From: Dehalococcoidia bacterium
GTDB taxonomy: Bacteria; Chloroflexota; Dehalococcoidia; GIF9; AB-539-J10
Direction of reading: 5' to 3'
NCBI GenBank assembly: GCA_030612025.1
Contig: JAUWOR010000001.1
Coordinates: 32,001 to 96,000, forward strand
DNA: 64,000 nucleotides
Part shown: positions 4,578 to 38,464 of the stretch, piece by piece
Layout: every line of letters begins with the position of its first letter
Numbering within the stretch: the stretch's first letter is position 1
Notes under the pieces: generated by a model
Database searches by the model: none
Told to the model about the DNA's origin: nothing
The model's input: the letters and a program-made list of their open reading frames with translations, nothing else
Translations under genes and position numbers: made by a program

Positions 4578-4663
4578 CCTCAAAGTCTATAGCTATCTCG
4601 ATAATATACTAACAAATATAGCTCTCTAAGCAAGTCGGACTCGTTGTGGCGAATAATCTGTTG
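4578..4663 (-). repeat. Displaced copy of the 3' end of the RNase H-like gene (direct repeat of 9147-9232)
   Basis: Encodes QQIIRHNESDLLRELYLLVYYRDSYRL* versus ...YRF* in the intact gene; differences almost all synonymous. Confidence 0.95.
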
Positions 4664-4782
4664 TTGAGCAATCTTGCTCCCCTGTGGATACCACTTACAA
4701 ACTTCTCGGCCTATCTTCTAGCTTCCTATATACCACATTCGCTTGTGGATACTTCGAAGAGATGACACTAAATACATCTTAC

Positions 4783-4848
4783 GGACTTTAGTCCTAATGA
4801 AACCTAGGACTAAGTTCCCATTGACCTTTTTTGGGGGGGGGCTAAAAT
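4783..4848 (+). promoter_or_regulatory. Promoter TTGACC-16-TAAAAT with T6G9 spacer and upstream inverted operator pair
   Basis: GGACTTTAGTCCTA (4783-4796) and TAGGACTAAGTTCC (4805-4818) are inverted copies; -35 at 4821, -10 at 4843. Confidence 0.6.
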
Positions 4849-4975
4849 TAGCCTAGAAAACGGCGATAGCTAGCCGGAAAAGGGGGGTGGTAGCTTTGAA
4901 CGCCAGAGATAGCCCATGAGTCGCCGGGGAAAAGGTTTTTAGACTGTGTGTAACAAATAATCTAAGGAGGTAAAC

Positions 4976-6097
4976 ATGAAAAGGAAACTATCAATAGTCT
5001 TAGCTATTGCATTGACCTTAATTTTGTCATTATCGAGTGTAGCTTTTGCTGCTGGAGACAAGGTAACTGAAGAGGAGGTTGATGTAGCTCAGGACGCAGG
5101 ACAGGCCTGGCTGGATAGAATAGCTGCCCTCACCGGCGAGCCTTCAGAATGGATTGGTGCTCATCTAACAGCACCGCAGGTTTATTATGACCTGAAGGGA
5201 CAACCAAATGCCTACATGTTTGCCATGGAGAATGACGGCATGGTTGTCGGGCATATTATCGTTGGCAGTTCGGCCTATGGTTATCCCGTATTCCAAGCTG
5301 GAGAATCTGCCCCTCCTTCAATTCCGACTGCCGATGAAGTGAAATCTAGCATAGAAAGGGATTTAGGATTAAAGATAGCCAAGGAAAGTATTGGCGAGCC
5401 AAGTTGTTTGCTATATTTGGGCATTGATAAACTATACGCTATATATGAAGTTGAAGGGCAAACAATAGGAGTAAATCTCATTTCGGAGCGCGCCACATTG
5501 GCATCAAACCTGAAATCCTATATGCCTTCTCCAGAGGAATATAAAGCCGCTAAGAAAGAAGCCAAGGGGTCGAAACCCCTATCACTGAGAAGCTCTGGTT
5601 ACTATTGGCTGGTGATGGAGTACTACAGGGAGGGAGAGCGCAAGTGGTGTGGTCCTTGCTCAGGAGTGTCAATCGGGCGGTACTACCGAACAGAGCATGA
5701 GCCTAGCTATGACGATTTACCCTCTCCTGATTCGTACATGTACGATTGGCTTCGGTTTGAGATGGGTGTTCCAACTACGCCGGGAAACTATGGGCCCGCA
5801 TTCATAGCGATGACCGAGGACTGCTCCGGTCACTATGATAATTTCAGCTATGTTAACAACTATCATCTGGAGGATAGCGACTATTGGACTGTAGTAGATG
5901 ATATAGATAGCAGCTGGCCACTAGGACTAGAGATAACGGATGAATGGCATTGGAGAGCCATAAAAGGCTATTCTTACAATACAGATACCGATAGATATGA
6001 AGTAATTTGCACTAACTCAGCGACGCCTTCCGATTGGGAACGTATTGACTGGCTTCTCCTGGGGTGGTGGGATTTTACGTGTTGCATTAAAGACTAG
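4976..6097 (+). CDS. Secreted papain-fold (C39/C10-like) cysteine peptidase with probable prodomain
   Basis: Signal peptide ending AFA; candidate triad WCGPC, HWRAIKGY, CTNS; AAGGAGG RBS. Confidence 0.65.
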   Translation: MKRKLSIVLAIALTLILSLSSVAFAAGDKVTEEEVDVAQDAGQAWLDRIAALTGEPSEWIGAHLTAPQVYYDLKGQPNAYMFAMENDGMVVGHIIVGSSAYGYPVFQAGESAPPSIPTADEVKSSIERDLGLKIAKESIGEPSCLLYLGIDKLYAIYEVEGQTIGVNLISERATLASNLKSYMPSPEEYKAAKKEAKGSKPLSLRSSGYYWLVMEYYREGERKWCGPCSGVSIGRYYRTEHEPSYDDLPSPDSYMYDWLRFEMGVPTTPGNYGPAFIAMTEDCSGHYDNFSYVNNYHLEDSDYWTVVDDIDSSWPLGLEITDEWHWRAIKGYSYNTDTDRYEVICTNSATPSDWERIDWLLLGWWDFTCCIKD

Positions 6098-6114
6098 CCG
6101 GATAAGCATAGCTA

Positions 6115-6158
6115 AAAGCAGGCGTCTCTTCCTGTAAGACTTGAGAGACGCTTGCTTT
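6115..6158 (+). terminator. Stem-loop after the peptidase gene
   Basis: AAAGCAGGCGTCTCT ... AGAGACGCTTGCTTT. Confidence 0.6.
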
Positions 6159-6208
6159 ACTATTATACGCTTTGGAGCTAAGATACTTCGACAGGGCAGG
6201 AAAGTTTC

Positions 6209-7597
6209 ATGTTACGACGGATCGTGGTATTAGCATTGATTGTTGGCATGCTTTTTAGCACAAGCTGTATTTGTCTCTTTTACGCATCGTCTGTTGAATG
6301 CCCCGGTGTAACAGGTGACAATTCAGGTGGTGCTATCGTGGCCTACGAAGTCTATAAAGGTAATAGCCGAAATGTTTATGTCCAAAGAATAGGCCCTGGG
6401 GGGAAAATCTTATGGGGTGAGAAAGGTGTGCCGCTATACATCGCCCAAGGTTGCACTGAGGGCGGCGGCAAGACCGCTCTAGCAGTGGCTGATGGCTATG
6501 GTGGTGTCATCTTAGTTTGGTGGGAGGAACAGGGCCTTTTCGCCCAAAAGATGGATTCCGAGGGCTATGCCTTGTGGCAGGAAGGGGGGATATTAGCCTC
6601 CACCGGTTATGTTGGGAACTACAAGATGGTAAGCGATAGCCTGGGCGGAGCCATCATCTCATGGTCTGATGATTGGGGCAAGTTGTATCTTCAAAGGGTA
6701 GATTCTGAAGGTAGCCTTTTGTGGATGAAGGCTGGTGCTCCGATACACCTTAGAACACATCCTATGCCAGCTAGTCACGCATTCGATATAGCCAGTGATG
6801 ATTCGGGCGGCACCATTACTGTCTGGAAGAGTAAAGAAGGCAACATCTTTGCTCAGAAGATAGACTCTGAGGGCAACATTTTATGGCGTCAGGGTGGATT
6901 ATTGGTATCTGCCCCACATCAAGAAAGCCCTCAGGTAGTGAGCGATGGCTCAGGTGGAGCCATAATTGTTTGGATGCATCACGTACTATCAGAGAATGGC
7001 CATGGCTACAGCGGTTCAGATATTTATGCTCAGAGAATAGATGCCGAGGGCAATATTTTGTGGGAGCCAGATGGTGTGCCCATCTGTATTGGGTCGAAGG
7101 AGGCAGCTGTCCCTCATATCATAAGCGATGGCTTAGGCGGTGCCATCGTTACTTGGAGGGCTCCTTGCTCCATCTACGCTCAGAGAATAGATTCCAAAGG
7201 CAACATTTTATGGCCTGAAGATGGCATACAAGTTTGGGAGGCTGAAGGTCCCCAAAGCCCTCATTACTGTATAACAAGCGACGGTTTCAACGGAGCCATC
7301 ATTGTTTGGTGGTATGTTGAAGAAGGTAAATCGGTAGACCAAGGGGGCGTGCTCCGTGCTCAGCGGTTAGATCCTAGCGGGAGAAAACTATGGGAAACCA
7401 ATGGAACGCTAGTATCAACTGACCCTTCTTGGGGCTATTCCTACGGTCCAATAATCTCGGGAGATGGCCATGGTGGGGTCATTGTCTCCTGGACAGCTGG
7501 TAAACGCATGCATGCCTCAAACTTGTCTTATGTTCAGAGAATAGATGCTCAAGGCAACCGCTTATGGGGAGAAAAGGGGATCTTGCTAAATGGCTAG
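6209..7597 (+). CDS. Exported repeat (beta-propeller-like) protein
   Basis: About 8 repeats of SDGxGGAIIxW...YAQRIDxxGNILW; N-terminal signal/lipobox-like segment. Confidence 0.8.
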   Translation: MLRRIVVLALIVGMLFSTSCICLFYASSVECPGVTGDNSGGAIVAYEVYKGNSRNVYVQRIGPGGKILWGEKGVPLYIAQGCTEGGGKTALAVADGYGGVILVWWEEQGLFAQKMDSEGYALWQEGGILASTGYVGNYKMVSDSLGGAIISWSDDWGKLYLQRVDSEGSLLWMKAGAPIHLRTHPMPASHAFDIASDDSGGTITVWKSKEGNIFAQKIDSEGNILWRQGGLLVSAPHQESPQVVSDGSGGAIIVWMHHVLSENGHGYSGSDIYAQRIDAEGNILWEPDGVPICIGSKEAAVPHIISDGLGGAIVTWRAPCSIYAQRIDSKGNILWPEDGIQVWEAEGPQSPHYCITSDGFNGAIIVWWYVEEGKSVDQGGVLRAQRLDPSGRKLWETNGTLVSTDPSWGYSYGPIISGDGHGGVIVSWTAGKRMHASNLSYVQRIDAQGNRLWGEKGILLNG

Positions 7598-7647
7598 GAT
7601 TTACAGCCTTCCTCAAAGCCCATAGCTATTGCGGTAGTACACAGGCA

Positions 7648-7884
7648 GATGACATAGATAATGACTGGCCAACGGCACTAATGGGGCCTGACTTCAAATA
7701 CCTACCGGGAGATGAACCCCACTGGATCGCAATAAGGGGATACGAATATCCTTACCCTGGGTATGAGCACGAGCACGCAATAATGTGCACGGACTCAGCC
7801 ACGTGTACTAGCTACTTGCACCTCGACTGGGATAACTTAAGTATCCCTTTCCCGCCAGTTGAGACTGTCCTTATTATGGATTAA
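7648..7884 (+). pseudogene. Orphan C-terminal fragment of a paralogous papain-fold peptidase
   Basis: DDIDNDWP...HWIAIRGY...MCTDSAT...LDW...IMD* aligns with DDIDSSWP...HWRAIKGY...ICTNSAT...IDW...IKD* of 4976-6097; lacks catalytic Cys and a credible start. Confidence 0.8.
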
Positions 7885-7970
7885 GGTTAGTAAGTGTAAG
7901 GGAAACTTAATGTGGCAGGCATTAATTCTAAACTTTTATACGCCTGCCACGTTATTATTAAAAAGGGTAA

Positions 7971-9089
7971 ATGAGGAAATTTATGGGACGCTTTGTTATC
8001 GTCGCAGCAGTGTTACTGCTGTCCTTGTCGGGCGCTGGCTGCGATGTGACCTCCCCAGAGGCTAATGACGTGGTGGTGGACAAAATTGCCTTCGGCTCGG
8101 ATTTCGAAGATCCTGGCCAACATTTCTTTGTTTATACCATCAACCCCGACGGCAGTGACCTGACAAAGATAGGTGAAGCTGGGATTGCCTCTTTCAAATG
8201 GTCGCCTGACGGTACAAGAATTGCCTTCATTGGATATGACGGAGAGCTGTGGGTTGCCGATGCCAAGGGCATGAATGCCTCCAGGGTGGAGCTGGCTAAC
8301 ATGGAGCGTCTGCAACCCTGGATTGGATATACGCTTTCTTGGTCTCCCGATGGCACAGAGATTGTCGCTTCATGTGTATTTTACCTGTCAGCGGATGATT
8401 ACATAACCGAACTTTGTACCATAAATGTTGAAACCGGCGTGGTGGAAAAGTTAACGGACGCCCCTGATGACTATAAATACGCGCCATCATGGTCGCCCGA
8501 CGGCAGCCAAATCACCTTCACTGTTCCGGGTCCTCCCGACTCTATCTACCTGATTGATCCCGATGGCAGCAATCAAAGGCTCTTGGCCACCGTCCCACAA
8601 CTAGCTGGGCCAATTAGCTGGTCGCCCGACGGGAAACAGATAATGTATGCCGCCAGGGGGGAGGAGGGGTGTGGAGATGACGTATACCTAGATGACATAT
8701 ACCTGATGGATGTTGAACAGGGCACCAGTGTTAATTTAACCAACAGCCCTGATATGGATGACCAAGCTCCTGTCTGGTCACCTGATGGCACAAGGATTGC
8801 TTTCAGCTCCCAGAAACGTATGGGTACGGAGCAGATTTATGTGATGGATGCCGATGGCAGCAATGTAGTACAACTGACCGATGGAAAGGATGAAAAGCTT
8901 AATTTCTACTGGCCTTCGTGGTCACCCGATGGCAAAAGAATCGCTTTCACAGGCGAGTTAGTGCGTCTTGGCCCTGAGAGTGAACAATGGTGCGGCATTT
9001 TCGTTATGGATATCGACAGCCACAGCATGACCGAGCTCATTGGTTCTAAGGATGCTGATTATGGGCCCCCTGTCTGGTCACCTCGATAG
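7971..9089 (+). CDS. TolB-like PD40 beta-propeller lipoprotein
   Basis: Repeated WSPDG motifs; signal peptide with GAGC lipobox. Confidence 0.9.
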   Translation: MRKFMGRFVIVAAVLLLSLSGAGCDVTSPEANDVVVDKIAFGSDFEDPGQHFFVYTINPDGSDLTKIGEAGIASFKWSPDGTRIAFIGYDGELWVADAKGMNASRVELANMERLQPWIGYTLSWSPDGTEIVASCVFYLSADDYITELCTINVETGVVEKLTDAPDDYKYAPSWSPDGSQITFTVPGPPDSIYLIDPDGSNQRLLATVPQLAGPISWSPDGKQIMYAARGEEGCGDDVYLDDIYLMDVEQGTSVNLTNSPDMDDQAPVWSPDGTRIAFSSQKRMGTEQIYVMDADGSNVVQLTDGKDEKLNFYWPSWSPDGKRIAFTGELVRLGPESEQWCGIFVMDIDSHSMTELIGSKDADYGPPVWSPR

Positions 9090-9148
9090 GGAACAAGGCA
9101 GCAACGCAGGTTTCTAGCGACCAGCGACTTGCCAAATATTAATATGCC

Positions 9149-9685
9149 TCAAAACCTGTAGCTATCTCGGTAATATACTAACAAATATAGCTCTCTAAGC
9201 AGGTCGGACTCGTTGTGGCGAATAATCTGCTGCAAATAATCCCTATCCCCGGTCTTAAGAAACTTTTCCCATAATAAAGGGATATCCTTGCCACTTATCA
9301 CTGGCTCGCTAAAATAATGCTCTGCGTGGGTGAACAACTCATCCAATTTGGGCCATTTAAGACCAAGCTTTTCCGCTTTTTCCCTCCAGGGCTGGAATAA
9401 GTCTATCCCTTCTATATTCATTCCCCTGGCTTTAAGAAATTCTTTCTCAAAAGAGAGGTTGTAGGCATAGAATGGCTTGGGCAACTTGGGAATGAGTCCA
9501 GCAATCTGAGTGATAAAAGGCTCTTCGTCCTTTGAAGTGCGGCATATTATTTCGAGGCGACTCCCTTGAACATAGCCAAAAACCACTATCTCATCATGAA
9601 TTCTATCCAGCCCGGTAGTCTCTATATCAATTAAGGTTCCCTGTGGAATGCTTACCATTAACTCCCGACTATATGAGGTAATCAT
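9149..9685 (-). CDS. RNase H-like (YprB/MrfB-type DEDD) exonuclease domain protein
   Basis: IDIETTGL, YNLSFE, HNESD motifs. Confidence 0.85.
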   Translation of the reverse strand: MITSYSRELMVSIPQGTLIDIETTGLDRIHDEIVVFGYVQGSRLEIICRTSKDEEPFITQIAGLIPKLPKPFYAYNLSFEKEFLKARGMNIEGIDLFQPWREKAEKLGLKWPKLDELFTHAEHYFSEPVISGKDIPLLWEKFLKTGDRDYLQQIIRHNESDLLRELYLLVYYRDSYRF

Positions 9686-9860: not shown

Positions 9861-9981
9861 GAGGCTGTTTAATTTTGCCTCATCCAGTTTTAATACCCGT
9901 TCACCCCCAAGATCCTCGTAGTGCGACCCTTTAGGGTCGTGCACGAGGCTAAAGCCTCGCACTACACTTTTAAACACCCTC
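9861..9981 (-). mobile_element. MITE-like element with REPIN core A
   Basis: Terminal inverted repeats GAGG(C/G)TGTTTAA; core GTAGTGCGAGGCTTTAGCCTCG-TGCA-CGACCCTAAAGGGTCGCACTAC. Confidence 0.85.
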
Positions 9982-10621: not shown

Positions 10622-10821
10622 GAGAGTGTTTATTAATTGGCAAAGAATGTCACTCTGAGCCCTTCGCTTCCTGTCATTCTGAGAGGGAGAGCCGAAGCCT
10701 TGAGCATAGCGAAAGGGTCAGCGACCGAAGAATCTCGCTCAGGACAGGCTCCGTGAAGAGTCTAAAAGAGATTCTTCGCCCGTAGGGCTCAGAATGACAA
10801 ATAGGATTACTAAACAGTCCC
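10622..10821. mobile_element. MITE-like element with nested TGTCA-type REP core (family C)
   Basis: TIRs GAGAGTGTTTATTAAT / GGGACTGTTTAGTAAT enclosing TGTCACTCTGAG...CTCAGAATGACA; inner part recurs near 51137-51230. Confidence 0.7.
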
Positions 10822-10893: not shown

Positions 10894-11862
10894 ATGGATA
10901 TCTGTGAAGAATTAAGGAGCAAGCTTAAAGAAGCTACCAAGAAGAACAGAGCCGATGCTATTCTCCTCTCAGGAGGACTTGATACCAGCATTTTGGCCTT
11001 CATAGCGAAGCCAGCCATAGCCTTCACAGTAGCTTTGAAAGATTCCCAAGCATCCGACCTAATCTACTCAGAAAAAGTGTCGAGACTTCTGGGAATAGCG
11101 CACAAAAAAATGGAGTTCAGTGTGGAAGAGGCACTAAATGCACTCCCTGAGGTTATCAGAATATTGAAAACCTTCGACCTCGCTTTACCCAACGACCTTT
11201 CCTTATACTTTGCCCTCAAACTTGTCCAGGAAAACAATGTTTGTTCCATCATGACCGGCGACGGAGCCGATGAACTTTTTGCCGGCTACTCTTACATGGC
11301 ATCACTCCCACCCAAAGCTCTTAAAAAGTATATAAGCCACCTTTCAAAAAGCTGGCACTTCTCAGCCAATGAGCTCGGCGAGGCTTTAGGCATTGAGGTA
11401 AAGCAACCTTTTCTCGATAAGGATTTCATTCGTTTCGCTCTGGAAATAAGCCCTGAACTCAAGGTCAAAAATGGCATCGGTAAACATATTCTGAGAAAGA
11501 GCTTTGGGGACTTAATTCCACCAGAGATAGTGTGGCGGAAAAAAGAGCCTATAGAATATGGCTCAGGTTCTAGTAGGCTTCGCAAAATAATAGAGAATAT
11601 GGTCTCTGAGGAAGAGTTCCGGGCAGTAAAAGAGAAAACTGGCATAAAATTCATCAATAAGGAACACTCTTTTTATTACCGTATCTATAGCGAAGTCGTT
11701 GGGGAAATACCTCAAACCTCACCATCGGCTCCCTCTCCATTTACTGGAGAGGGACGGGGTGAGGTAGAAAGATGTCCCTGCTGCGGAGCAAGCATGGGTA
11801 AATGGCATTGCAGGATTTGCGGCTTTTCACGACCTCTTAAGGAATACCTAACCAGTTCTTAA
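10894..11862 (+). CDS. Asparagine synthase-like ATP pyrophosphatase domain protein with C-terminal Zn ribbon (no glutaminase domain)
   Basis: LSGGLDTS, TGDGADELFAGY, PFLD, CPCC...CRIC. Confidence 0.85.
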   Translation: MDICEELRSKLKEATKKNRADAILLSGGLDTSILAFIAKPAIAFTVALKDSQASDLIYSEKVSRLLGIAHKKMEFSVEEALNALPEVIRILKTFDLALPNDLSLYFALKLVQENNVCSIMTGDGADELFAGYSYMASLPPKALKKYISHLSKSWHFSANELGEALGIEVKQPFLDKDFIRFALEISPELKVKNGIGKHILRKSFGDLIPPEIVWRKKEPIEYGSGSSRLRKIIENMVSEEEFRAVKEKTGIKFINKEHSFYYRIYSEVVGEIPQTSPSAPSPFTGEGRGEVERCPCCGASMGKWHCRICGFSRPLKEYLTSS

Positions 11863-12694: not shown

Positions 12695-12793
12695 ATGGCA
12701 AAGATTAAAATCACCAAGACCGAGCTCGTCTGGCCAGGCAAGTATGACGAGAATGGTCAGCGTAAGGAGGTGGAGAGGGCTGGGGTGAGGTAG
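12695..12793 (+). pseudogene. N-terminal fragment resembling a site-specific DNA methyltransferase (Mod-like)
   Basis: MAKIKITKTELVWPGKYDENGQRKEVER; runs directly into the displaced asparagine-synthase 3' end. Confidence 0.55.
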
Positions 12794-12870
12794 AAAGGTG
12801 CCCTTGCTGCGGAGCAGGCATGGGTAAATGGCATTGCAGTGTTTGCGGCTTTTCACGACTTGTAATATAA
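12771..12870 (+). repeat. Displaced copy of the asparagine synthase-like gene 3' end (repeat of 11745-11833)
   Basis: GEGWGEVERCPCCGAGMGKWHCSVCGFSRLVI* versus GEGRGEVERCPCCGASMGKWHCRICGFSRP. Confidence 0.95.
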
Positions 12871-29199: not shown

Positions 29200-29646
29200 A
29201 TGAAACTTATAAGTGCCTGCCTATTGGGAATAAGGTGTACCTGGGACAGTAAAGATAATTACAAGAGCGATAAGGCAATCGAGCTTTTAAACTCTGAGAC
29301 GCTAATCCCCGTTTGCCCAGAACAATTAGGAGGATTAAAGACCCCCAGGATACCTCAGGAAATTCAGGGAGGCACCGGTGAGGATGTCCTTGATAGGAAA
29401 TGCAAGGTGCTAAATAGAAATGGAGAAGATGTTACTGTGGAATTTATTACCGGAGCAGAAGAAACCTTAAAACTTGCCAAGCTATTCCATGTTGAAGAAT
29501 TTATAGGGAAATCTAAAAGCCCCTCATGTGGCTGTGGGCAAATATATGATGGCACATTTTCTCAAAAATTGATTGACGGCGATGGCGTTACCACGGCATT
29601 ATTGAAAGGAAATGGAATCAGAGTTATAAGCGAAGAAGATTTGTAG
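29200..29646 (+). CDS. DUF523 (2-thiouracil desulfurase-like) protein
   Basis: ISACLLG, PVCPEQLGGL, KSKSPSCG, GDGVT. Confidence 0.9.
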   Translation: MKLISACLLGIRCTWDSKDNYKSDKAIELLNSETLIPVCPEQLGGLKTPRIPQEIQGGTGEDVLDRKCKVLNRNGEDVTVEFITGAEETLKLAKLFHVEEFIGKSKSPSCGCGQIYDGTFSQKLIDGDGVTTALLKGNGIRVISEEDL

Positions 29647-29732
29647 CTTGCTAAGAAACCCACACAATTTCCCGTGAGTTCAGTGAGGTCGAAGCCTGAT
29701 GAATCAGGACTTATGTGAAATACCTAGGTCGC

Positions 29733-30368
29733 TTAATCCTTGGGAGACAGCTTGTCACTAACCTCCTGGAGTGACACTCTGCCAGCAGATACAACCATCT
29801 TTAGAGCATCATCAACCGAAATGTTGGTCCGAATAACTTTATCTTCCGTCACTATCTCCAGGAAGCCCGATGTCGGATTAGGAGAAGTGGGTATAAAGAC
29901 GTTGAGCAATCTTTCGCCGGACTTGTCATACGATTCATTAGTGATAAAGCCTATTGCCCTCATACCTTCTTTAGGGAACTCTACAAGCACTACCTGCATA
30001 AAGCCAGTTTTGCCCGGCTTAGAGAAGCCTTCCAGGATTTGTTTGATACCGGCATAGAGTTGTCGCGCTGCTGGGACTTTCGCCAACAAGGATTCACCAT
30101 AATGAATCACCCTCCTTCCCACAATGTTGCTGGCTATGACTCCAGCCAAGTAAATTATTACTATCGTTACGCCAAAGCCTACTCCAGGAACTGTGCGACC
30201 CCATATAGACCTGATTACAGGCTGCAGTATATTGTCGAGGACAACAAAGATCCAGACAAATATTAATATGGTGACACCAATTGGCACGACAACAAGAATG
30301 CCCGTGGCGAATTGTGCCCTTAATTTCTTACCTAGCCAACCCCAGGATACTCTCCGAGTGTGCTTCAT
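29733..30368 (-). CDS. DUF502 membrane protein
   Basis: VLVEFP, IGFIT, FIPTSPNPTSGF. Confidence 0.9.
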   Translation of the reverse strand: MKHTRRVSWGWLGKKLRAQFATGILVVVPIGVTILIFVWIFVVLDNILQPVIRSIWGRTVPGVGFGVTIVIIYLAGVIASNIVGRRVIHYGESLLAKVPAARQLYAGIKQILEGFSKPGKTGFMQVVLVEFPKEGMRAIGFITNESYDKSGERLLNVFIPTSPNPTSGFLEIVTEDKVIRTNISVDDALKMVVSAGRVSLQEVSDKLSPKD

Positions 30369-30621
30369 TCCCTTATCCTCCTTATTGCGCCAAGTACACT
30401 AATACTTTCAAGCAACCAATTGATAGCTATTCTAACATTGTAAATTGTCAACGAGAAATGAAACACAATGAGTCCGAACTGACCGAAAGCCAGTTAAAAG
30501 ATGACACCTCAAATTTTGGGAAATCTATTCTTCGCCTTAAATATAAACAAACTGGCTAATTGTTTGCCAAACTGTTGGTCGCCAACCACTACTTCTTGAA
30601 TTCTGAGTAATCTCATTCTAT

Positions 30622-31452
30622 TTAGTCTTTCTTGAATATGCGCCCGTCATAGGTGAATGGTAACGGCATCTTCATTATGGGGTCTACAGCCTTGTCGAGA
30701 TTCGTTACTATTGAATCTAGCCGTTCTTGCCATGAGACTACGTTTGGTTTTTCGAAGTCAAGTTGTCTTGCAAGAGCGAAGCTCTTAATAGCCTCTGTAA
30801 CTCGAAGCATCGTTACACACAATATAAAGGCTTTACTCGGTAGGTCCTCTATTCTGGTATCTGGCGCAGCCATTACTATATATTCCTCTCCCGTTAACGA
30901 TACCGAGAATGCGTCATGTAGTGCAGATGGAATGGTCGGGTGTTTCACCTGACACAGCCACCTATATTGCGAATATAATAGCTCCCAGTAGTTCTCATCC
31001 TTGACATCGACCAAAGTGCTTCCTGACCTACTACTTATTTCCTTCAGTCGTCGTGTGTGCATCTTGCATAGGTCTGCAACAGACCATGGTAAACCAGTTT
31101 TCGAATTCAAGAACTGTTCTGCTCTCTTAACGCTACCCGCTATACAACTAGTGGCAAGAGCATTCTCGAATGCTGCAGCAGCTACCGACCCAGCTTGAGA
31201 TGTGTAGCCCATTAAGAGTAGATTCCAAGTAGCCCGTAGGTCGTTTAACGAGCGTTTCAAAAACAAGGCGGCAACACCAATATCCTCCGTTTTTTCACGC
31301 TTGCAGTCCAAGGTTGGTGCTTCTACTCCACACTCGTAGCAATCAGTAATCGGTTTCGAGAAAGGTTTCAGCATCTCTGCCATCTTCGGACTGCTGGCTA
31401 TTTCTAACTTTGCTAGAACATTCCAAAGACCGTGTGAGTTTCGCATTTCCAT
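30622..31452 (-). CDS. Hypothetical helical protein, possibly HEPN-like (DUF5677-type)
   Basis: Y..LC..KH motif and helical pattern; weak. Confidence 0.55.
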   Translation of the reverse strand: MEMRNSHGLWNVLAKLEIASSPKMAEMLKPFSKPITDCYECGVEAPTLDCKREKTEDIGVAALFLKRSLNDLRATWNLLLMGYTSQAGSVAAAAFENALATSCIAGSVKRAEQFLNSKTGLPWSVADLCKMHTRRLKEISSRSGSTLVDVKDENYWELLYSQYRWLCQVKHPTIPSALHDAFSVSLTGEEYIVMAAPDTRIEDLPSKAFILCVTMLRVTEAIKSFALARQLDFEKPNVVSWQERLDSIVTNLDKAVDPIMKMPLPFTYDGRIFKKD

Positions 31453-31631
31453 TACTAACTTCCCTGTCGGTATCGGGGTATATATTCAGCTTTCTGCCGA
31501 TAATTATACTACTTTTCGAATCACAGGATGAGCAGGAAGAACCCTAAGAGATATTCTAGGAAGTATGTGGGAAAACCAGCCTTAACGATGCTGTCCACCT
31601 ACCCTGCAAGCCGAGGGAATTCGTATGTACA

Positions 31632-32100
31632 GTTGCTTGCGCGTTTTGACGAAATGTTAAATCGTCCCTTCTTAATACTGGTAGGGGCAACGATTCCGCG
31701 CCAACTGCCTCCATCCATACCCGTGAGTCCTCTCAGCTTACTTGAAGATCACTCTGTAAAGGCGGGTTCTTCGAGAGCTCCACAATGTAGTGGGCAAATA
31801 TACGATGGCACATTTTCCCAAAAATTGATTGTTGGCGATGGTGTTACCATCGCATTATTGAAGAGAAATGGCATCAGAGCCATAAGCGAAGAAGATTTGT
31901 AGCTTACTAAGAGAATTGCACCATTTCCTTAGAGCAATATCTACTTTGCGACCTTTGGTTTTGACCACACAACGCAGACAATGATCCTGCATCTATGTGG
32001 GAAGCTGTGCACATCTTTCAAAGTGCTACTGCTCTACACTTGGACCTTGTAGAGCAATTCTCTGACTTCCTCTTTCACCAAGCTTTCGACTGAACAAGAC
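31632..32100 (+). repeat. Repeat unit copy 1 (segment X + displaced DUF523 3' end + segment Y)
   Basis: Aligns with 34215-34675; 31790-31929 aligns with 29534-29672. Confidence 0.9.
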
Positions 32101-32177
32101 GATGAAGTGTGCAACTTTTGCGAGACCCACCAAATCAAAACTCTTTAACTAAAGCTGTGACTACTATGCGATTGGCT

Positions 32178-33002
32178 TTAAACCCTATTATTGTGAAAAT
32201 AGTCTATTATTTGATTAGCCATTCTACAATAACTAGGGAATACTCTTAAATTCACATAGGCACCCTCTAGGGAAACATTAGGTGGACTGTCCTGAGGGTG
32301 CCCAAGATTGTTTCTTTGACAACGGATGAAGTCGAATATAGTGCCCAACATTATGTTGACATTATCCGGTAATGGGCGCGGTGAAACTTGCTGCAGGCTC
32401 TGAATCTTGCTAAAAACCCAGTCCATTTTGGGCCTTATTGCATTTCGGTCAATAATCTTTTCGAACTCACTTTTTTCGTTGGAATCAGATAGCGAGTTAA
32501 GCAGTGCCTCACATAGGAGAAGAAACATTCTTTCTGACGCAATACCAAGCATGACAACAGATGCAACCAGATTCCCCCGAGAGAAACATTCTAAACTTTC
32601 AGACAAGTAGCTCATAACCACAGGATCTGGACTTGTAACTTCTTTTCGAAAACGATCTAAATATCCAGTAGGATCATGGGGGAGATATTTGCCTTCCGAG
32701 ATGACCTTTCTACCATATTCTGTAATATGAAAAAAAGGTAAGTTCGGATTATTGACATTCAAACCTGGAGCCACAACACCCTGTATCATTAACTCCCATA
32801 GGATATCTTGAGCCAAGGAGATCAACTTATGTCTTCCTGCATCCGCGTCACCAACGTATTCAACATATCTGTCAAACCCTCCACCAGAGTGGTCATATTG
32901 ATTCCAGTTCTTATCCTCTTTTAGGCGTTGAAGAATTATCGCTCTAGCTAATTCAAGACCACCTTTTTCATTAGGATCAAATCTGATTTTGCCCATTTTC
33001 AA
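32178..33002 (-). CDS. Hypothetical protein with C-terminal HEPN-like RxxxxH motif
   Basis: ESLECF...ASVVMLG.ASE and RNNLGH; putative defence nuclease. Confidence 0.6.
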   Translation of the reverse strand: MKMGKIRFDPNEKGGLELARAIILQRLKEDKNWNQYDHSGGGFDRYVEYVGDADAGRHKLISLAQDILWELMIQGVVAPGLNVNNPNLPFFHITEYGRKVISEGKYLPHDPTGYLDRFRKEVTSPDPVVMSYLSESLECFSRGNLVASVVMLGIASERMFLLLCEALLNSLSDSNEKSEFEKIIDRNAIRPKMDWVFSKIQSLQQVSPRPLPDNVNIMLGTIFDFIRCQRNNLGHPQDSPPNVSLEGAYVNLRVFPSYCRMANQIIDYFHNNRV

Positions 33003-33414
33003 AGCTTTGCTACAAAAGGACTACTGGCAAAAACACTCGAAATCACCAAACCACTAGATTGCATCTCCTAAGGTTCTCAACTTATTATAAGCTTTCCTCG
33101 AGCAAGCCTCAATGGGCAAAACGGTATAGCCTTACACATGCTCCGCATCATCTAAAACCAACTGGCACTCTTGCCATAGAGGGTATGGATATTTAGCGAT
33201 GAATCTTAACAAACATGAGTGCCCATGATGGATGAAGTTTTTGGGAGAGATTTAGGAGCTACCGGGAATCTCATTTTGGCTTTTTGTTACCGCTGGAACC
33301 TATTGCCAGGACATTTGCTAATCGAATGTTTGAGGCTCGGTTCGCAAGATACAGGTTCTCAGCAATACTAAGGACCGAAATGTCCATGGCTACCAGTGGC
33401 GGAAGAAGATACCA

Positions 33415-34053
33415 CTATGTTTTTTGAAATTCCAGTTTCAGTGAGTTTTCTTGGTGGTCTCCCCAGTCACCAAAGATTGTGTATGCAATCCTTAGGTTTT
33501 GTGAGGGCAACTTGAGTTCATCAGTCACCTTAAGCCTAACTTTACCTATCAGCACATATTTACCTACGAAACACGTATACTCGGGTTGGTTGTAGCTATA
33601 GAAAGAGATTGTAAATCTATCAGGTTCACCAGTTTGTTTTCCATCCAGCCTGTCACCTTCTCGCGCACGAACCAAGTACTTTTCAAACACATTTGGTATC
33701 TTCAATTCTATTTGATACGTAGTAGCCACTCTGTCCCCTTTATTGTATGCATAGATGGGTATATCTAACTGCTTGACCTGGGACAATCCAATGTGCTTCC
33801 GCTTGTTGCCCATTTCATCAAAGGCTAACTCTATGACGGGTCTGGCAAGCGACCTCCGAAATTGATGGGTGGCATATAGTAGTGAGAAGAGCACAGCTAT
33901 AATCGCTACTGCAGTAAATACCAGCTGGGCTTCGGCATATTGAAGTGAAGGTTCGCTTGGCTTGTATGGTCCAAAGAAACTCCCATATATTGTTGAACCG
34001 ATGACCAGTAATGCAACGATTGTGGCTCCCACATATACGCGCCAAAATCGCAT
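33415..34053 (-). CDS. Hypothetical membrane-anchored protein
   Basis: Two N-terminal TM segments, beta-rich C-terminus, GAGGGAG RBS. Confidence 0.65.
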   Translation of the reverse strand: MRFWRVYVGATIVALLVIGSTIYGSFFGPYKPSEPSLQYAEAQLVFTAVAIIAVLFSLLYATHQFRRSLARPVIELAFDEMGNKRKHIGLSQVKQLDIPIYAYNKGDRVATTYQIELKIPNVFEKYLVRAREGDRLDGKQTGEPDRFTISFYSYNQPEYTCFVGKYVLIGKVRLKVTDELKLPSQNLRIAYTIFGDWGDHQENSLKLEFQKT

Positions 34054-34214
34054 CTAGTTTCTCCCTCAATCCTGCATTGTATCACATTCTTGTGCCTGCA
34101 AGCTTATTCCGAACCAACTTAGGATAGAAGACGGACAGACAATGCGGCAGCATAATCATCTGAATCGCGTATTCATGTTTGCATCGACGGTCATAAGCGA
34201 CTAAAATCGGTTAA

Positions 34215-34675
34215 GGTGCTGCACTTTTTGACGGGTTGCTAAATCCTCCTTTTTAATACTGGTATGGGCAGCGATTCCGCGCTAATCATCCCCATCCATA
34301 CCTGCGAGTTCTCTCAGCTTACTGGAAGATAACTTTGTAAAGGCGGGGTCTTCGAGAGCTCCACAGTGTGATGGGTAAATATACGATGGCACATTCTCCC
34401 AAACATTGATTGACGGTGATGGCGTTACCACCACATTATTGAAGAGAAATGGAATTAAAGTTGTAAATGAAGAAGATTTCTAGCTTTCTAAGAAACTCGT
34501 GCAATTTCCTTAGAGCGATAACTATTTTGCAACCTTTAGTTTCGCCCACATAAGATGAGCAATGAATCATCATCCATGTAGAAAGCTGCTCACATCTTTA
34601 GAAGTACTGCTACCCTACACTTGAGCCTTGTAGGGCAATTTTCTGACTTCCTCCTCCATCAAGCTTCAAACTGTG
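34215..34675 (+). repeat. Repeat unit copy 2 (X + displaced DUF523 3' end + Y)
   Basis: Diverged direct repeat of 31632-32100. Confidence 0.9.
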
Positions 34676-34792
34676 CGAAACGATGGATTGTTAGATCGTA
34701 GGTAAGTAGGTAGGATAATCCTGAGGGGCGCCGTTGTAACTGCACGAATAGGATTCAAGCTAGCCAGCAAAGTTAACTAGATGGAACATGCC

Positions 34793-35413
34793 TTACCACG
34801 GTTTACTAAACCCCCCATGGTCACCTTGAAAACGATCAATATTATTCAGAGCCTCTCTCGCAACCTTGCTACCAGGGTCAATCTGCACCGCTGTTTCAGC
34901 ATATTCGCGCGCTTTATGAAATTGAAGGTCAGACAGGTAAGCGGCTGCCAAGTCAGTAAGAATGTTCACATTGGTTGGCGCGAGATCGATTGCCCTATGA
35001 AGATATGCTAAGCCTTTTGCTTTATCACCAGCACAATAGATAGCCCATCCTAATCCACGTAGATATTCACTATTATTCGGTTCTTTATCAACAGCCACCT
35101 CAAATTCACCAATTGCCTTGCCCCATTGGCTTTGTATGGAATAGGTGAAGCCAAGAAGGTAGTGGTAACCAGGGTTGTCTGGCCTACAATTAATAGCCTT
35201 CTTGAGGTGATTCGCTGCCAGGCTAAGCCGCCTTAGCGTGAGGTAAATGTCACCGAGATAAGCATTTGCGTACTCAACGGCAATATCGTTGTCGCTATAT
35301 CTAATCAGGACGTACTTGTATATTTCGATAGCTTTATCGTAATCGCCCTGTTCAATGTGGGTTTTTGCTTCGCTCCATATAGTATAAAGCTCCGGGGCGG
35401 TATCGTTATCCAT
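34793..35413 (-). CDS. Tetratricopeptide repeat protein
   Basis: Several TPR-like repeats; GGAGG RBS before MDNDT. Confidence 0.85.
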   Translation of the reverse strand: MDNDTAPELYTIWSEAKTHIEQGDYDKAIEIYKYVLIRYSDNDIAVEYANAYLGDIYLTLRRLSLAANHLKKAINCRPDNPGYHYLLGFTYSIQSQWGKAIGEFEVAVDKEPNNSEYLRGLGWAIYCAGDKAKGLAYLHRAIDLAPTNVNILTDLAAAYLSDLQFHKAREYAETAVQIDPGSKVAREALNNIDRFQGDHGGFSKPW

Positions 35414-35646
35414 ATGGCCTCCCTGTGAGCAATCGCGCTTGCTTATACACCAAATGGTACCACATCCGAGAAGAAGAGTTGTGGGTGTAGACATGGAATT
35501 ACTACTGCAGCATTGTCTTGCTACATTTTCCGGCTGAATGTGCAATTTTTGGCAGTCAATTAAGCATGATGCTCAGGGGTAAAACAAAGGTAGACTTTAG
35601 CTTCTTAGCTGCTGTATACTTGTTTTGGTAACAAGGAGGCCATGGC

Positions 35647-36097: not shown

Positions 36098-36200
36098 GGT
36101 GCTTTACAATATGACAAAAAGTTAAATCCTCCTTTTTCAATACTGCAATGGGCAACGATTCCGCACTAAAGGGGTTTCTTGGAGAGCGCCACAATGTGAT
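36098..36200 (+). repeat. Partial third copy of segment X
   Basis: GTTAAATCCTCC...ATACTG...GGGCAACGATTCCGC...GAGAGCGCCACAATGTG with internal deletion. Confidence 0.8.
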
Positions 36201-36242: not shown

Positions 36243-36458
36243 TCACACAACCTCAATAACCTTATTCTTGCTCTTGAAGCCGCTTAAAATCCTGACTTGA
36301 CCCTGAGAAACACCAAAATGCTTTGCCAGTAATTTGATGACTGCCTGGTTAGCTTTGCCTTCCTTGGGTGGTTCTTTGACCTTCACTACAAAGTTATCGC
36401 CTTCTTGATTGATTTCCTCGGTTTTTGAGTTAGGCTTTACCTTAACCTTAACTTTCAA
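36243..36458 (-). CDS. DUF167 (YggU) protein
   Basis: VKPNS, PPKEGKAN, G.KS.NK. Confidence 0.9.
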   Translation of the reverse strand: MKVKVKVKPNSKTEEINQEGDNFVVKVKEPPKEGKANQAVIKLLAKHFGVSQGQVRILSGFKSKNKVIEVV

Positions 36459-36550
36459 CTAATTCTCCCCACATTCCCTGGTTATGAAATCTCACTAGCT
36501 TAACCGGCGCTATTTTATTAGTTAAGGGCCTCTGACTCTAAGTAAATACC
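36453..36550 (-). repeat. Displaced copy of the mtaB 3' end (repeat of 37105-37202)
   Basis: VFT*SQRPLTNKIAPVKLVRFHNQGMWGELVES* versus VFTPSHEHLTNKIAPVKLAGFHNQGMWGELVEILS*. Confidence 0.95.
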
Positions 36551-36561
36551 GGCGCCCGCAT

Positions 36562-36796
36562 CTAGTCTCTGAGTAATCTTAAGAACTCCTCCACTGAGAG
36601 GTCAGCCTGTTTTAAAATCCTCTTCAATGTTCCCTTTGGAATATCCTTAGAGTGGATGGGAACTGTTATTTTCAAGTCAGGCTTCGTCTTATGAAATAAT
36701 CGAGCATGGCTCCCAAGTTTGGTGATGAATATAGAAGCCAGCTTTGAGAAGAGCTTTAAGAACCTCTTCACCTTTTATGATAGGGAGCTTTGCCAT
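36562..36796 (-). pseudogene. hicA: HicA toxin, frameshifted
   Basis: MAKLPIIKGEEVLKALLKAGFYIHHQT, one extra base near 36715, then GSHARLFH...TVPIH. Confidence 0.85.
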
Positions 36797-36798
36797 CT

Positions 36799-37026
36799 CT
36801 AGACAGTCACTGCTATGCGCTCAATGGCTGGCTCCCTGTCTTCCGGAATCACCCCTTTTTCTTCAAGGACGCTCTCAAGATAACACTTTAAGGCATCCTC
36901 AGCCATCCTCTTTGCTTCCTCAATCGTTTCCCCAAAGGTGCAAATCTCAGGGATTGCTGGAAAGATAACATTGTAGCCCCCTTCCCTAAGGGGCTCAAAA
37001 ATAACCGTATAGTGATAACTTTTCAT
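36799..37026 (-). CDS. hicB: HicB family antitoxin
   Basis: EGGY.V.FP..P...TFGETIEEA. Confidence 0.9.
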   Translation of the reverse strand: MKSYHYTVIFEPLREGGYNVIFPAIPEICTFGETIEEAKRMAEDALKCYLESVLEEKGVIPEDREPAIERIAVTV

Positions 37027-37093
37027 TCTGCCACTTTATATGCCTTTTCAGATATCATGTCAAGGCAAGGCAGTTTTTAGGTTTAATATCAGC

Positions 37094-38464
37094 TTAACTT
37101 AGAATTTCAACTAATTCTCCCCACATTCCCTGGTTATGAAATCCCGCTAGCTTAACCGGCGCTATTTTGTTGGTTAAGTGCTCATGGCTTGGGGTAAATA
37201 CCCTGATATAGTTATCAGTTAGCCCAGAATGTATGCCGCTACCAAGACTTGTCTCCTTTTCCCACAAGACAGGCATGACTTGCCCTAAAAACTGCTCGTA
37301 AAAACTATGCCGGCATTTTTGGGCTAACTCTAACATTCGCTGCTTGCGCTCCTTCTTTACTCTCTCATCTATTTGCTGGGGCATCCTAGCTGCCAGAGTC
37401 CCGGGACGAGGAGAGAAGGGAAAAACATGGATATTGGCAAAGCCAGCTTGCTGGCAAAAGTGGCAGCTTTGCTCAAACTCTTCATCGCTCTCCCCAGGGA
37501 AACCAACCATGACATCCGTGGTAATAGCTACTCCGGGTATTGTCTCCTTGATCAGATTCACTGCCTGTTGATAATCATCCAAAGAGTAACACCGCTTCAT
37601 CCTCTGAAGAATCCCGTCACTCCCACTCTGGAGAGCCAAATGAAGGTGGCGACATAGCCGCTTGTCCTGCCACAAGGCAAGAAATTGAGCAGAAATCTCC
37701 TGCGGCTGCAGTGAAGAGAGACGCAGCCTTCCAATACCTGTGTCATGAAGAATGCGCTCTATTAAACCTCTGAGGTCAATGCTAGATCCTTCGCTATCGC
37801 TCAGGACGGCGTCTTTATAACAGCCAATCTTAGTCCCGGTGAGAACAACCTCCTTATAGCCCAGAGCCACTTTCAGCTTAACTTCATCAATTATCTGGGA
37901 GGCAGGCAAAGAATACTCATAAGCCCTTACTCGAGGCACGATGCAATAAGCGCAAGGACTACGACAGCCGTCTTGAATTTTTATCAAGCTGCGAATCCTA
38001 CTGATGCCATTAAGCGGGATAAAGGAGCCCCTCCCTACATCACCCCTTACTTGGCAGGGGGCGTGAGATTGCCTCATTTCACCCTCACCCCTTCCCTCTC
38101 CCTTCAAGGGAGAGGGGATTTGTGCTCGCAACGACAAGCCTCCAACAATCTCAAGCAAGTGCTCTTTCTCTTCGTTGTCAATGACAGAATCAGCAATTGG
38201 AGCTAGTTCCTGAGGAGCCCTTTGAGCATAGCAGCCACTAGCAATAATGAAAGCCCGAGGATTTCTTCGCCTAGCTAGCCTGAGCCAGTGGCGTGACTTG
38301 CGATCAGCGACATGAGTTACTGTACAGGTATTGGTAATATAAATGTCAGCTACATCATCAGGAGTTACAAGCTGATATCCTGCTTCCCTGAATTGATTTG
38401 CTAGGGATTCCGTTTCTGCCTGGTTGAGCTTGCACCCCAATGTATAGAAAGCTACCCTCACCAC
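37094..38464 (-). CDS. mtaB: tRNA t6A37 methylthiotransferase (radical SAM)
   Basis: TLGCKLNQAE, NTCTVT, QDGCxxxCxYC, TDVMVGFPGE, GLTDNY. Confidence 0.93.
   Translation of the reverse strand: MVRVAFYTLGCKLNQAETESLANQFREAGYQLVTPDDVADIYITNTCTVTHVADRKSRHWLRLARRRNPRAFIIASGCYAQRAPQELAPIADSVIDNEEKEHLLEIVGGLSLRAQIPSPLKGEGRGEGEMRQSHAPCQVRGDVGRGSFIPLNGISRIRSLIKIQDGCRSPCAYCIVPRVRAYEYSLPASQIIDEVKLKVALGYKEVVLTGTKIGCYKDAVLSDSEGSSIDLRGLIERILHDTGIGRLRLSSLQPQEISAQFLALWQDKRLCRHLHLALQSGSDGILQRMKRCYSLDDYQQAVNLIKETIPGVAITTDVMVGFPGESDEEFEQSCHFCQQAGFANIHVFPFSPRPGTLAARMPQQIDERVKKERKQRMLELAQKCRHSFYEQFLGQVMPVLWEKETSLGSGIHSGLTDNYIRVFTPSHEHLTNKIAPVKLAGFHNQGMWGELVEILS

Follow-up and report, generated by a model that had tools for sequence, protein, structure and literature searches.

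Small accessory cassettes between diverged copies of housekeeping gene ends in an uncultured Dehalococcoidia genome

In the genome of an uncultured member of the Dehalococcoidia, small accessory cassettes are present at the ends of housekeeping genes, each lying between two diverged copies of the gene end. We put at roughly 0.55 the probability that these cassettes enter by host homologous recombination at the conserved gene end, without a dedicated integrase, and then spread. The genome examined is a 19-contig metagenome bin of 1.4 Mb, and all of the genomes compared (given here by handles such as G001) are incomplete metagenome bins. An initial annotation had reported gene-end repeats in four sets within the window, the whole stretch of 64,000 nucleotides that was analysed. 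The repeats are present in all four sets, with copies 80–93 % identical, and each is low-copy in the genome. The proposed layout of intact gene, cargo and displaced copy holds at loci 1, 2 and 4, where relatives have empty single-copy sites, and fails at locus 3. The features of the three supported loci are as follows.

4578..4663, reverse strand: locus 1 displaced copy, comprising the RNase_H_2 last 84 nt, stop codon and 2 nt, joined to the native downstream flank
4664..9146, forward strand: locus 1 cargo, four ORFs, no mobility gene (Pfam)
4976-6097, 6209-7597 (seven ~50-aa repeats), 7564-7884 and 7971-9089 (PD40 beta-propeller): locus 1 cargo ORFs
9147..9232, reverse strand: locus 1 gene-attached copy, the RNase_H_2 3′ end (gene at 9149-9685)
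10894..11862, forward strand: locus 2 host gene, asparagine-synthase-like, whose gene-attached copy (11745-11833) stops 29 nt short of the stop codon
12065..12672, forward strand: locus 2 cargo, DUF433 (12065-12304) and DUF5615/PIN-like (12304-12672), a toxin–antitoxin-type pair (Pfam)
12771..12859, forward strand: locus 2 displaced copy, which adjoins the cobU end and reaches an in-frame stop of its own four codons on
36421..36550, reverse strand: locus 4 displaced copy, an mtaB 3′ fragment and the functional DUF167 start (gene at 36243-36458)
36562..37026, reverse strand: locus 4 cargo, HicB-like antitoxin (36799-37026) and HicA toxin (36562-36771) (Pfam)
37073..37202, reverse strand: locus 4 gene-attached copy, the 3′ end of mtaB (37094-38464) and a decayed DUF167 5′ fragment

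Comparison with relatives indicates that loci 1, 2 and 4 are true insertions. The locus 1 cargo is missing from G003, G004, G001, G008 and G013, and that of locus 2 from G003, G001, G006 and G013. At locus 4, the cargo is missing from G002 and from the single-copy alleles of other genera, and is present in G003 and G004. The mtaB repeat there, first placed at 36453-36550 and 37105-37202, extends to 130 nt at 80 % identity (36421-36550 and 37073-37202).

The DUF523 region, locus 3, had been misread as a fourth locus of this kind.

29200..29646, forward strand: DUF523/2-thiouracil desulfurase family gene, with repeat copy 1 at 29534-29672 (feature 29200..29672)
29733..30368, reverse strand: DUF502 gene, a native neighbour that adjoins DUF523 in G001
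~30564..35531, no strand: variable block missing from G004, with a ~10-nt overlap at the junction
31638-32110 and 34220-34691: duplicated 474-nt units, each with one DUF523 3′ fragment
30622-31452, 32178-33002 and 33415-34053 (function unassigned) and TPR gene 34793-35545: ORFs of the block

DUF502 follows DUF523 in G001 to G004 and is therefore native rather than cargo, while copies 2 and 3 lie in the ~5-kb variable block that has no counterpart in G004; the gene–cargo–copy layout was rejected here. The three DUF523 copies are 84–86 % identical to each other, and no long repeat was found at the edges of the block (~30564-35531).

The pattern extends beyond the window. A genome-wide survey identified 57 low-copy local repeat pairs, each flanking a segment. 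Across events, the repeats are 60–720 nt in length, longer than the >30 bp used as a criterion for the Kobayashi-type insertions considered below, and the copies are 78–94 % identical. At least 20 different, unrelated target genes are used, and one host gene in the survey is an Eco57I-like methylase. A stop codon lies at a repeat copy in 26 of the 57 pairs against 13.8 expected, an approximately twofold enrichment that is limited to stop codons, since start codons (12 of 57) are at chance level. It had been claimed that the copies are always downstream of the gene; this is too narrow, as mirror-image cases at 5′ ends occur at other sites of the genome (DUF763, rtcA, pth, sucC, and an ORF of 1095 aa), though only stop codons are enriched. 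Nor do the repeats end at the stop codon, the gene-distal edge ranging from 29 nt before it to ~35 nt after it; in ligA this edge is 20 nt inside the coding sequence. Single-copy, cargo-free empty sites were found in same-genus genomes for nine events: loci 1, 2 and 4, rtcA, DUF763 5′, DUF763 3′, pth, ligA and HAD.

Among the 26 annotated events, 13 have cargo of toxin–antitoxin type, that is, adjacent small genes with a Pfam match to a toxin family, an antitoxin family or both, and hence putative modules. The families are HicA/HicB, ParE/RelB, HepT/MNT, PIN, DUF4258, MazF, DUF433/DUF5615 and HEPN. Probably, such cargo is over-represented because these modules resist loss. Other cargos contain genes without known function and metabolic genes or operons. 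As first reported, the window ORFs between repeats have no Pfam match to an integrase or transposase, and the cargo ORFs scanned genome-wide have no match to the integrase families PF00589 and PF00239. A DDE transposase gene is present in two of the 26 annotated cargos; the other 24 are below 20 kb and have no other mobile-element gene.

The sequence comparisons support the earlier proposal that the two copies differ in the manner of alleles, unlike those left by a fresh target-site duplication. At locus 1, 6 of 86 positions differ between 4578-4663 and 9147-9232, with five synonymous codon changes and one non-synonymous; at locus 2, 8 of 89 differ between 11745-11833 and 12771-12859. The description of the differences as mostly synonymous is borne out over 20 copy pairs, with 156 of 281 changed codons synonymous against 67.4 expected. 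Sixteen of the 20 pairs are free of indels, and three stops are present in displaced copies. In six of nine events, the divergence between the two copies equals or exceeds that between one of them and the single allele of a relative.

The ligA event, with native and foreign ends, also argues for different alleles. Compared with G003, identity is 97–100 % along the NUDIX flank as far as the displaced copy and 92–100 % in the 5′ part of ligA, whereas the 3′ 1.4 kb of the gene beside the cargo is only 50–87 % identical. The cargo is also present in the more distant G001, at 80–96 % identity. The displaced copy is chimeric: its cargo-side half is that of the G001 displaced copy and its flank-side half is the native G003/G004 allele. 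By these alignments, the gene-attached end and cargo are clearly an imported foreign tract, and the displaced copy, the remnant of the native end, is a native/foreign chimera. As the foreign tract is 1.4 kb long, this case shows spread by double crossover, not first entry. At locus 1, the flank-proximal side of the displaced copy has the allele of the genus, that of G003/G004/G001, and the gene-attached copy is 94–95 % identical to G003/G004, rising to ~98 % deeper inside the gene.

Under entry by host recombination, DNA of a relative would bring a cassette beside its own allele of the gene end, and the incoming molecule would be circular, or re-circularised at entry. One crossover within 50–330 nt of shared gene end would insert it, giving the intact gene with a partly donor-type end, the cargo, and a second gene-end copy joined to the native flank. 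Afterwards, the gene and the displaced copy would serve as homology arms, through which ordinary recombination could spread the structure to related strains or remove it from them. One conserved gene end could be used repeatedly; the end of secA carries a ParE pair in G000 and an HTH and PIN pair in G002, with unrelated cargos and different left repeat boundaries, which points to independent hits. What we infer is that the intermediate is circular, how the DNA gets into the cell and what part addiction plays. Genes for ComEC and DprA are present, which supports entry by homologous recombination weakly, because both are widespread in control genomes.

A single crossover predicts reciprocal chimeric copies, and the positional test for this, pooled over nine events, gave 309 concordant and 151 discordant site pairs, a result reached in 13 of 5000 within-event permutations. 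Four events were concordant (locus 1, 9 : 0; locus 4, 104 : 16; ligA, 127 : 8; rtcA, 29 : 13), two discordant (pth, 0 : 42; DUF763-5′, 18 : 46) and three uninformative (locus 2, 7 : 5; DUF763-3′, 15 : 20; HAD, 0 : 1). At locus 4, constraint on the outer halves together with decay of the inner halves can, as an alternative source, produce the concordance. Loss of the cargo from the relatives, through a crossover joining the two repeats, would also produce the same three-sequence pattern, therefore the polarity comes from outgroup parsimony alone.

Campbell-type integration offers a precedent. In the experiments of Amarir-Bouhram et al. (2011; PMC3240628), as given in the sections of that paper used here, single crossover of a re-circularised molecule produced an anchor duplication of 109–950 bp in 56 of 60 clones, and homology-facilitated illegitimate recombination accounted for 4 of 60. 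As there, a copy of the homologous segment flanks the insert on each side, and only host recombination would be needed. The precedent is, however, a laboratory plasmid in E. coli, whereas here no circular junction (cargo end, repeat, cargo start) is seen among the contig joints listed for loci 1 and 2; the site pattern predicted for reciprocal chimeric copies is seen in only four of nine events. A donor arrangement was searched for and none was found.

The structures are best read as a toxin–antitoxin-rich version of the Kobayashi mode, 'insertion with long target duplication', reportedly described for restriction-modification genes by Nobusato and co-workers in 2000. Such insertions have no mobility genes. 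A direct repeat, tens to hundreds of bp long, bounds them on either side and is single where a related genome has an empty site; the target gene stays intact because the repeats often span its start or stop. Their cargo is an addiction-type module (Furuta, Abe and Kobayashi 2010, PMC2853133). The relevant passages of a 2013 review ascribe this mode to restriction-modification systems only (PMC3874152). The present insertions likewise lack mobility genes and have direct repeats, a single-copy empty site and addiction-type cargo. They differ in carrying toxin–antitoxin pairs, function-unassigned genes and metabolic operons instead of restriction-modification genes, in their high density (57 segments in 1.4 Mb) and in their repeats, which are less alike, and mainly synonymously different, than the 93–100 % of seven published pairs in the sections used.

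That resemblance bears on a competing explanation, which we regard as unlikely, in which a staggered break or replication-linked repair copies 50–330 nt of recipient sequence to both sides of the cargo, the copies being identical at birth and diverging later with occasional gene conversion. The a-b-cargo-b-c architecture would be that of the published restriction-modification cases as far as these are set out in PMC2853133, and three events agree with it. The locus 4 copies have states in common that the G002 allele lacks, including a 3-nt deletion, and variant blocks are shuffled between the copies among G000, G003 and G004, which fits in-situ duplication or gene conversion; the DUF763-5′ copies share a 4–5 nt state missing from G004 and G001; and a 5-nt deletion in the pth displaced copy would be pseudogene decay. 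However, insertions without a counterpart in the closest relatives, with flanks 95–98 % identical, have copies only 90–93 % alike, further apart than the published pairs. The synonymous share of 56 % is also above the ~39–46 % that our own arithmetic estimates for one selected and one neutral copy, and the ligA gene-attached copy lies within the 1.4-kb foreign tract.

Homology-facilitated illegitimate recombination, reportedly studied in 2002 both by de Vries and Wackernagel and by Prudhomme and co-workers, was the route initially suggested. Its broader part, integrase-free and homology-linked acquisition at conserved gene ends, stands, and a one-sided anchor in a conserved gene that brings in adjacent foreign DNA is common to both. 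In its strict form, a linear donor anchored in the gene would join illegitimately, by its far end, just upstream of the recipient gene end; we consider this unlikely, and slightly less probable than target duplication. At ligA, and weakly at locus 1, the anchored gene side has the donor allele and the displaced side the native one, and homology is lost abruptly at the junctions of cargo and displaced copy. Comparable C-terminal displacement is said to have been described in Rhs loci by Jackson and co-workers in 2009. It is also described in type VI secretion effector–immunity loci, and the same idea was proposed for displaced 3′ ends in both settings in the parts of Kirchberger et al. (2017; PMC5361080) consulted. 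Those loci share the stepwise, integrase-free order of gene with new 3′ end, new cargo and displaced old 3′ end, but they are polymorphic toxin genes with functionally different 3′ ends, whereas here the ends are homologous housekeeping alleles, with cargo that has no relation to the host gene. The classical form fits less well because it gives deletions: the sections used of PMC3240628 describe a usual product with a deletion of about insert size and 3–10 bp microhomology at the joint, duplications arising from single crossover. Here, the recipient segment is duplicated, not deleted, and the displaced copies are not purely native, since at ligA and locus 1 their cargo-side halves are foreign or diverged.

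Islands that carry an integrase and sit at the 3′ ends of genes or tRNAs leave an intact gene, the island and a displaced, partial 3′-end direct repeat, and they and their integrase-less derivatives resemble the present layout. A trans-acting site-specific recombinase, Xer-type or unrecognised, might integrate cassettes with an att-like gene-end copy, much as related integrative elements mobilise elements that lack an integrase; such a system, also raised initially, is disfavoured and very improbable. The stop-codon enrichment is typical of integrative elements, and cassettes are stacked in G003 and at locus 3. Unlike islands, the scanned cargo ORFs have no integrase match and there is no common core: in agreement with the reported absence of a shared att core, the best shared 6- to 8-mers were at null level in four junction classes over 20 events. 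The many unrelated targets and varying repeat boundaries, as in the two secA events, also count against it. Genome-wide there are two full tyrosine recombinase genes (PF00589; C16:15742-16257 and C8:63963-64478), both >15 kb away from any event listed for the same contig, one fragment, and no serine recombinase genes (PF00239). Within window positions 1-40000, no tRNA or tmRNA was found (Rfam).

A strain-chimeric assembly artefact at the repeats can be set aside as highly improbable: although the bin consists of 19 contigs and those of Logan are interrupted within the repeats, X1 contigs (Logan) cross the locus 1 cargo into both copies with no differences (4611-9200), an X7 contig from a different study covers 11745-12797 at locus 2, in X5 and X7 contigs the locus 1 cargo continues into the displaced copy at ~96 % identity, and G003 and/or G004, which were assembled separately, have the locus 4, rtcA, panC and HAD structures as well. 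The second-study contigs, which confirm the contiguity of the insertions, also suggest that the cargo is polymorphic.

Beyond entry by homologous recombination, it is conceivable, if rather doubtful, that the cassettes are recombinase-free mobile elements whose sole mobility part is the portable copy of a conserved gene end. Host RecA recombination between the copies would free a circle of gene end and cargo, which would re-enter the same conserved gene in another cell by one crossover, even across species, and toxin–antitoxin addiction would then maintain the cassette. If true, this would be a general answer to how toxin–antitoxin systems move without transposases in streamlined genomes, and would extend the life cycle that Kobayashi proposed for restriction-modification genes.

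The four repeat sets that the initial annotation had reported in the window are present where it placed them. The window corresponds to C4:32001-96000 in a 1.4-Mb bin of 19 contigs. The two copies of the gene end differ at 6 of 86 nt at locus 1 (RNase_H_2 gene) and at 8 of 89 nt at locus 2 (asparagine-synthase-like gene), the three copies of the DUF523 end (locus 3) show 84-86% identity, and the mtaB-end repeat (locus 4) is 130 nt long and 80% identical, with a nearly identical core of ~65 nt. Each of these repeats is low-copy in the genome, therefore chance is not an issue. The window ORFs between the repeats have no Pfam match to integrase or transposase families, as had been claimed, and no tRNA or tmRNA was found with Rfam in window positions 1-40000. 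Based on Pfam, the cargo at the three loci that proved to be insertions is as follows.

Locus 1 cargo: four ORFs, unknown or of beta-propeller type
Locus 2 cargo: a DUF433 and DUF5615/PIN-like pair
Locus 4 cargo: a HicB and HicA pair

True insertion at these loci is borne out by related genomes that have one repeat copy and no cargo. For locus 4, G002, which like G001, G003 and G004 belongs to the same genus as the genome studied (G000), has a single copy of the segment without HicAB, likewise the alleles aligned from other genera (G018, G013, G009, and G006); in the single-copy alleles, the start of DUF167 is overlapped by the mtaB stop codon. The locus 4 insertion is common to G003 and G004. 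At locus 1, there is one copy and no cargo in G003, G004, G001, G008, and G013, with flanks 95-98% identical in G003 and G004, and a foreign signal is seen only in the host gene's final 100-150 nt. Locus 2 is empty in G003, G001, G006, and G013; a foreign tract is not callable here, due to baseline identity to G003, G001, and G004 that is too uneven (78-99%).

When metagenomes were scanned for the first protein of the locus 1 cargo, two loci matched (47% identity), but their neighbours (HD/PAS and UvrA) are unrelated, therefore no donor arrangement was found for this cargo. The gene pair 4976-6097 and 6209-7597 is present in two metagenome contigs at 47% identity; the second of these ORFs encodes 462 aa, including seven tandem repeats of ~50 aa (6373-7581), and has no Pfam match.

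Other repeats are also present in the window. A palindromic dispersed element of ~58 nt (9918-9975, 13580-13637, and 21936-21993, direct; 50371-50428, inverted) and longer units of 110-200 nt (9861-9981 and 10622-10819) occur many times in G000 and the same-genus genomes and look MITE-like; the host genes of loci 1 and 2 have one such element between them. A 173-nt direct repeat family of four copies, 62-82% identical (49998-50170, 51350-51522, 60771-60943, and 63581-63753), occupies the window's right half, away from the gene-end insertion loci.

Locus 3 had been misread as a gene followed by cargo and a displaced copy. In each of the four same-genus genomes, DUF502 comes after DUF523 and is therefore native. 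The two extra DUF523 fragments lie within 474-nt duplicated units of a variable block (~30564-35531) that is absent from G004, the junction of which has only ~10 nt of overlap; long repeats were looked for at the block edges and none were found. A unit of ~150 nt includes a 58-nt element that is present at 31647-31704, 34228-34285, and 36112-36169. The first two copies are each ahead of a displaced DUF523 fragment, and the third is downstream of DUF167, which is its position in G002 and G003.

The layout is not an assembly artefact: in contigs from the probable source study, the locus 1 cargo runs into both copies with 0 differences, and in a second study a single contig runs through locus 2 from the gene copy across the toxin-antitoxin (TA) cargo into the beginning of the displaced copy. 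Other contigs there have a locus 1 cargo, ~96% identical, joined to the displaced copy. In two public contig sets of the second study, summed contig depth was far lower over the cargos than over the flanks; at locus 1 it was 45-122 for the cargo vs 257-600 for the flanks (X5), and 6-27 vs 135-266 (X7). This suggests that the cargo is polymorphic, although it is only a hint because the depth figures add up all contigs. None of the 15 joints listed for loci 1 and 2 is circular or empty-site; the unitigs break in the repeats, making this uninformative either way.

Self-alignment of the whole bin identified 57 low-copy direct-repeat pairs (at least 60 nt, at least 75% identical, and 150-15000 nt apart), extending the pattern beyond the window, as the initial annotation had anticipated. 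Counting ORFs of at least 100 aa, 26 of the 57 pairs have a copy at a stop codon, a number reached by none of 1000 rigid random shifts (mean 13.8, maximum 24). Copies at start codons are at chance level (12 out of 57 vs 14.0 in the null). The gene calls behind these counts are crude ORF picks and every genome is an incomplete bin. Host genes include secA, ligA, rmlD, panC, hisB, pth, rtcA, sucC, DUF763 (both ends), and a HAD hydrolase. Among 26 events with annotated cargo, 13 contain a TA-type pair or toxin-family gene and two a DDE transposase gene (one IS1595-type, one IS6/IS240-like); the other cargos are unknown or metabolic genes, the largest being a 7.5-kb operon of eight genes. Six more events have empty sites in same-genus genomes (rtcA, DUF763 5′, DUF763 3′, pth, ligA, and HAD), giving nine with loci 1, 2, and 4. 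This count leaves out rmlD, hisB, and sucC, for which the flanks in relatives are unconserved or the contigs end; the secA and panC sites have other fillers in the relatives.

Further arrangements of this kind are present outside the window. A 720-nt direct repeat, 94% identical (L055; C4:144177-144896 and 147849-148568), consists of acpP and the first 318 nt of fabF, with an AMP-binding ligase gene and an IS6/IS240-like DDE transposase gene between the copies. Repeats of 234 nt, direct and 97% identical (L054; C8:30589-30822 and 32210-32443), are on either side of the trigger factor gene, the second being just upstream of clpP. A 366-nt repeat, 82% identical (L042; C5:26260-26604 and 34104-34465), contains the start of a DUF6125 gene and brackets 7.5 kb with the Eco57I-like methylase event inside, possibly a larger, nested event. 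In G003 (L088; C113:1-8800), ~200 nt repeating the cargo start come after the displaced HAD copy, then 7.7 kb of transporter and aminotransferase genes not found in G000, and then sequence like C4:144074-144896 of G000, which looks like stacked cassettes within a larger variable region.

The differences between copies are mostly synonymous, in agreement with the initial annotation: 20 pairs together have 281 changed codons, of which 156 are synonymous, vs 67.4 predicted by random single-base change. The displaced copies contain only three stop codons and 16 of the 20 pairs have no indel. In six of nine events, divergence between the two copies equals or exceeds that between one of the copies and the single allele of a relative, on repeats that are short and with high within-genus polymorphism; divergence of this size holds also for insertions absent from the closest relatives. 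Based on these comparisons, much of the divergence dates from when both copies were working gene ends, and so from different lineages. In the short repeats (pth, DUF763 5′ and 3′), single sites are ambiguous in polarity at ~10% within-genus polymorphism.

The clearest case for the origin of the copies is ligA. Identity to G003 is 97-100% in the NUDIX flank as far as the displaced copy and 92-100% in the 5′ part of ligA, but only 50-87% over the last 1.4 kb of the gene. The cargo is also present in the more distant G001, at 80-96% identity. The displaced copy is a chimera of a cargo-side half that matches the displaced copy of G001 and a flank-side half identical to the native allele. The repeat junction is 20 nt inside the coding sequence, therefore the gene ends in NQKL* rather than the native NQNTSSF*. 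ligA also contains two stretches without alignment to G001, G003, or G004, one of ~270-300 nt and in frame (C18 ~55897-56197; L040 4398-4698), the other of ~110 nt (L040 4875-4981), the ORF being open throughout.

In the available text of one study, one-armed homology with the outcome of homology-facilitated illegitimate recombination (HFIR) gave insertion with deletion and microhomology, and a re-circularised molecule entering by single crossover duplicated the arm over 109-950 bp in 56 of 60 clones (PMC3240628). The layout is that of arm duplication, therefore the favoured reading is entry by a homologous single crossover and subsequent spread by ordinary recombination. Entry would be at a conserved gene end, both the circular form of the molecule and its route into the cell being inferred; in later spread the displaced copy would serve as one homology arm. 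Genes for ComEC and DprA, both common, are present; neither donor nor circle was found.

A single reciprocal crossover predicts an empty-site allele that corresponds to the first copy on the left and the second on the right. Pooled over nine events, 309 site pairs are concordant vs 151 discordant, a value reached by 13 of 5000 permutations. Locus 1 (9:0), locus 4 (104:16), ligA (127:8), and rtcA (29:13) fit the prediction, pth (0:42) and DUF763 5′ (18:46) are against it, and the remaining three are uninformative. The pattern expected from entry would also arise if cargo had been lost through crossover between the repeats, and, for locus 4, from constraint plus decay. The HFIR-like entry proposed initially stands in being integrase-free and homology-linked, but not in the layout, which is not HFIR insertion with deletion. 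The allele-like divergence of the copies argues against simple duplication of the recipient's own target. A site-specific or trans-acting integration system, also raised initially, is weighed against by the absence of a shared k-mer at any junction class, the unlike repeat boundaries of two independent secA cassettes, and recombinase genes limited to two full tyrosine genes and one fragment, with no serine recombinase.

The closest described phenomenon, on the accessible parts of the sources, is 'insertion with long target duplication' of restriction-modification (RM) genes, with repeats >30 bp and up to ~420 bp, often across a start or stop codon, without mobility genes and by a mechanism given as unknown, for which a life cycle of release and re-entry was proposed (PMC2853133); the accessible part of a 2013 review gives this mode for RM systems only (PMC3874152). 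The Dehalococcoidia events are unlike the RM insertions described there in cargo, event density, and allele-like divergence of the copies. The Rhs/T6SS 'C-terminal displacement' has the same outline, there with variable toxin tips, as far as the text seen describes it (PMC5361080). A full-text search of journals open without subscription found no paper on TA cassettes between long gene-end duplications, or on gene-end duplication of this pattern in Dehalococcoidia.

Movement of chromosomal TA modules and small cassettes between genomes without a transposase or integrase is a long-standing puzzle. This 1.4-Mb genome provides dozens of natural cases with empty-site relatives, and these favour a route by plain homologous recombination at the ends of conserved genes, with the displaced gene end as a homology arm. 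If general, this would account for hot spots beside housekeeping genes and would provide a simple signature of recent gene gain for bins without recognisable mobile elements, and the life cycle proposed for 'insertion with long target duplication' becomes testable by population metagenomics.
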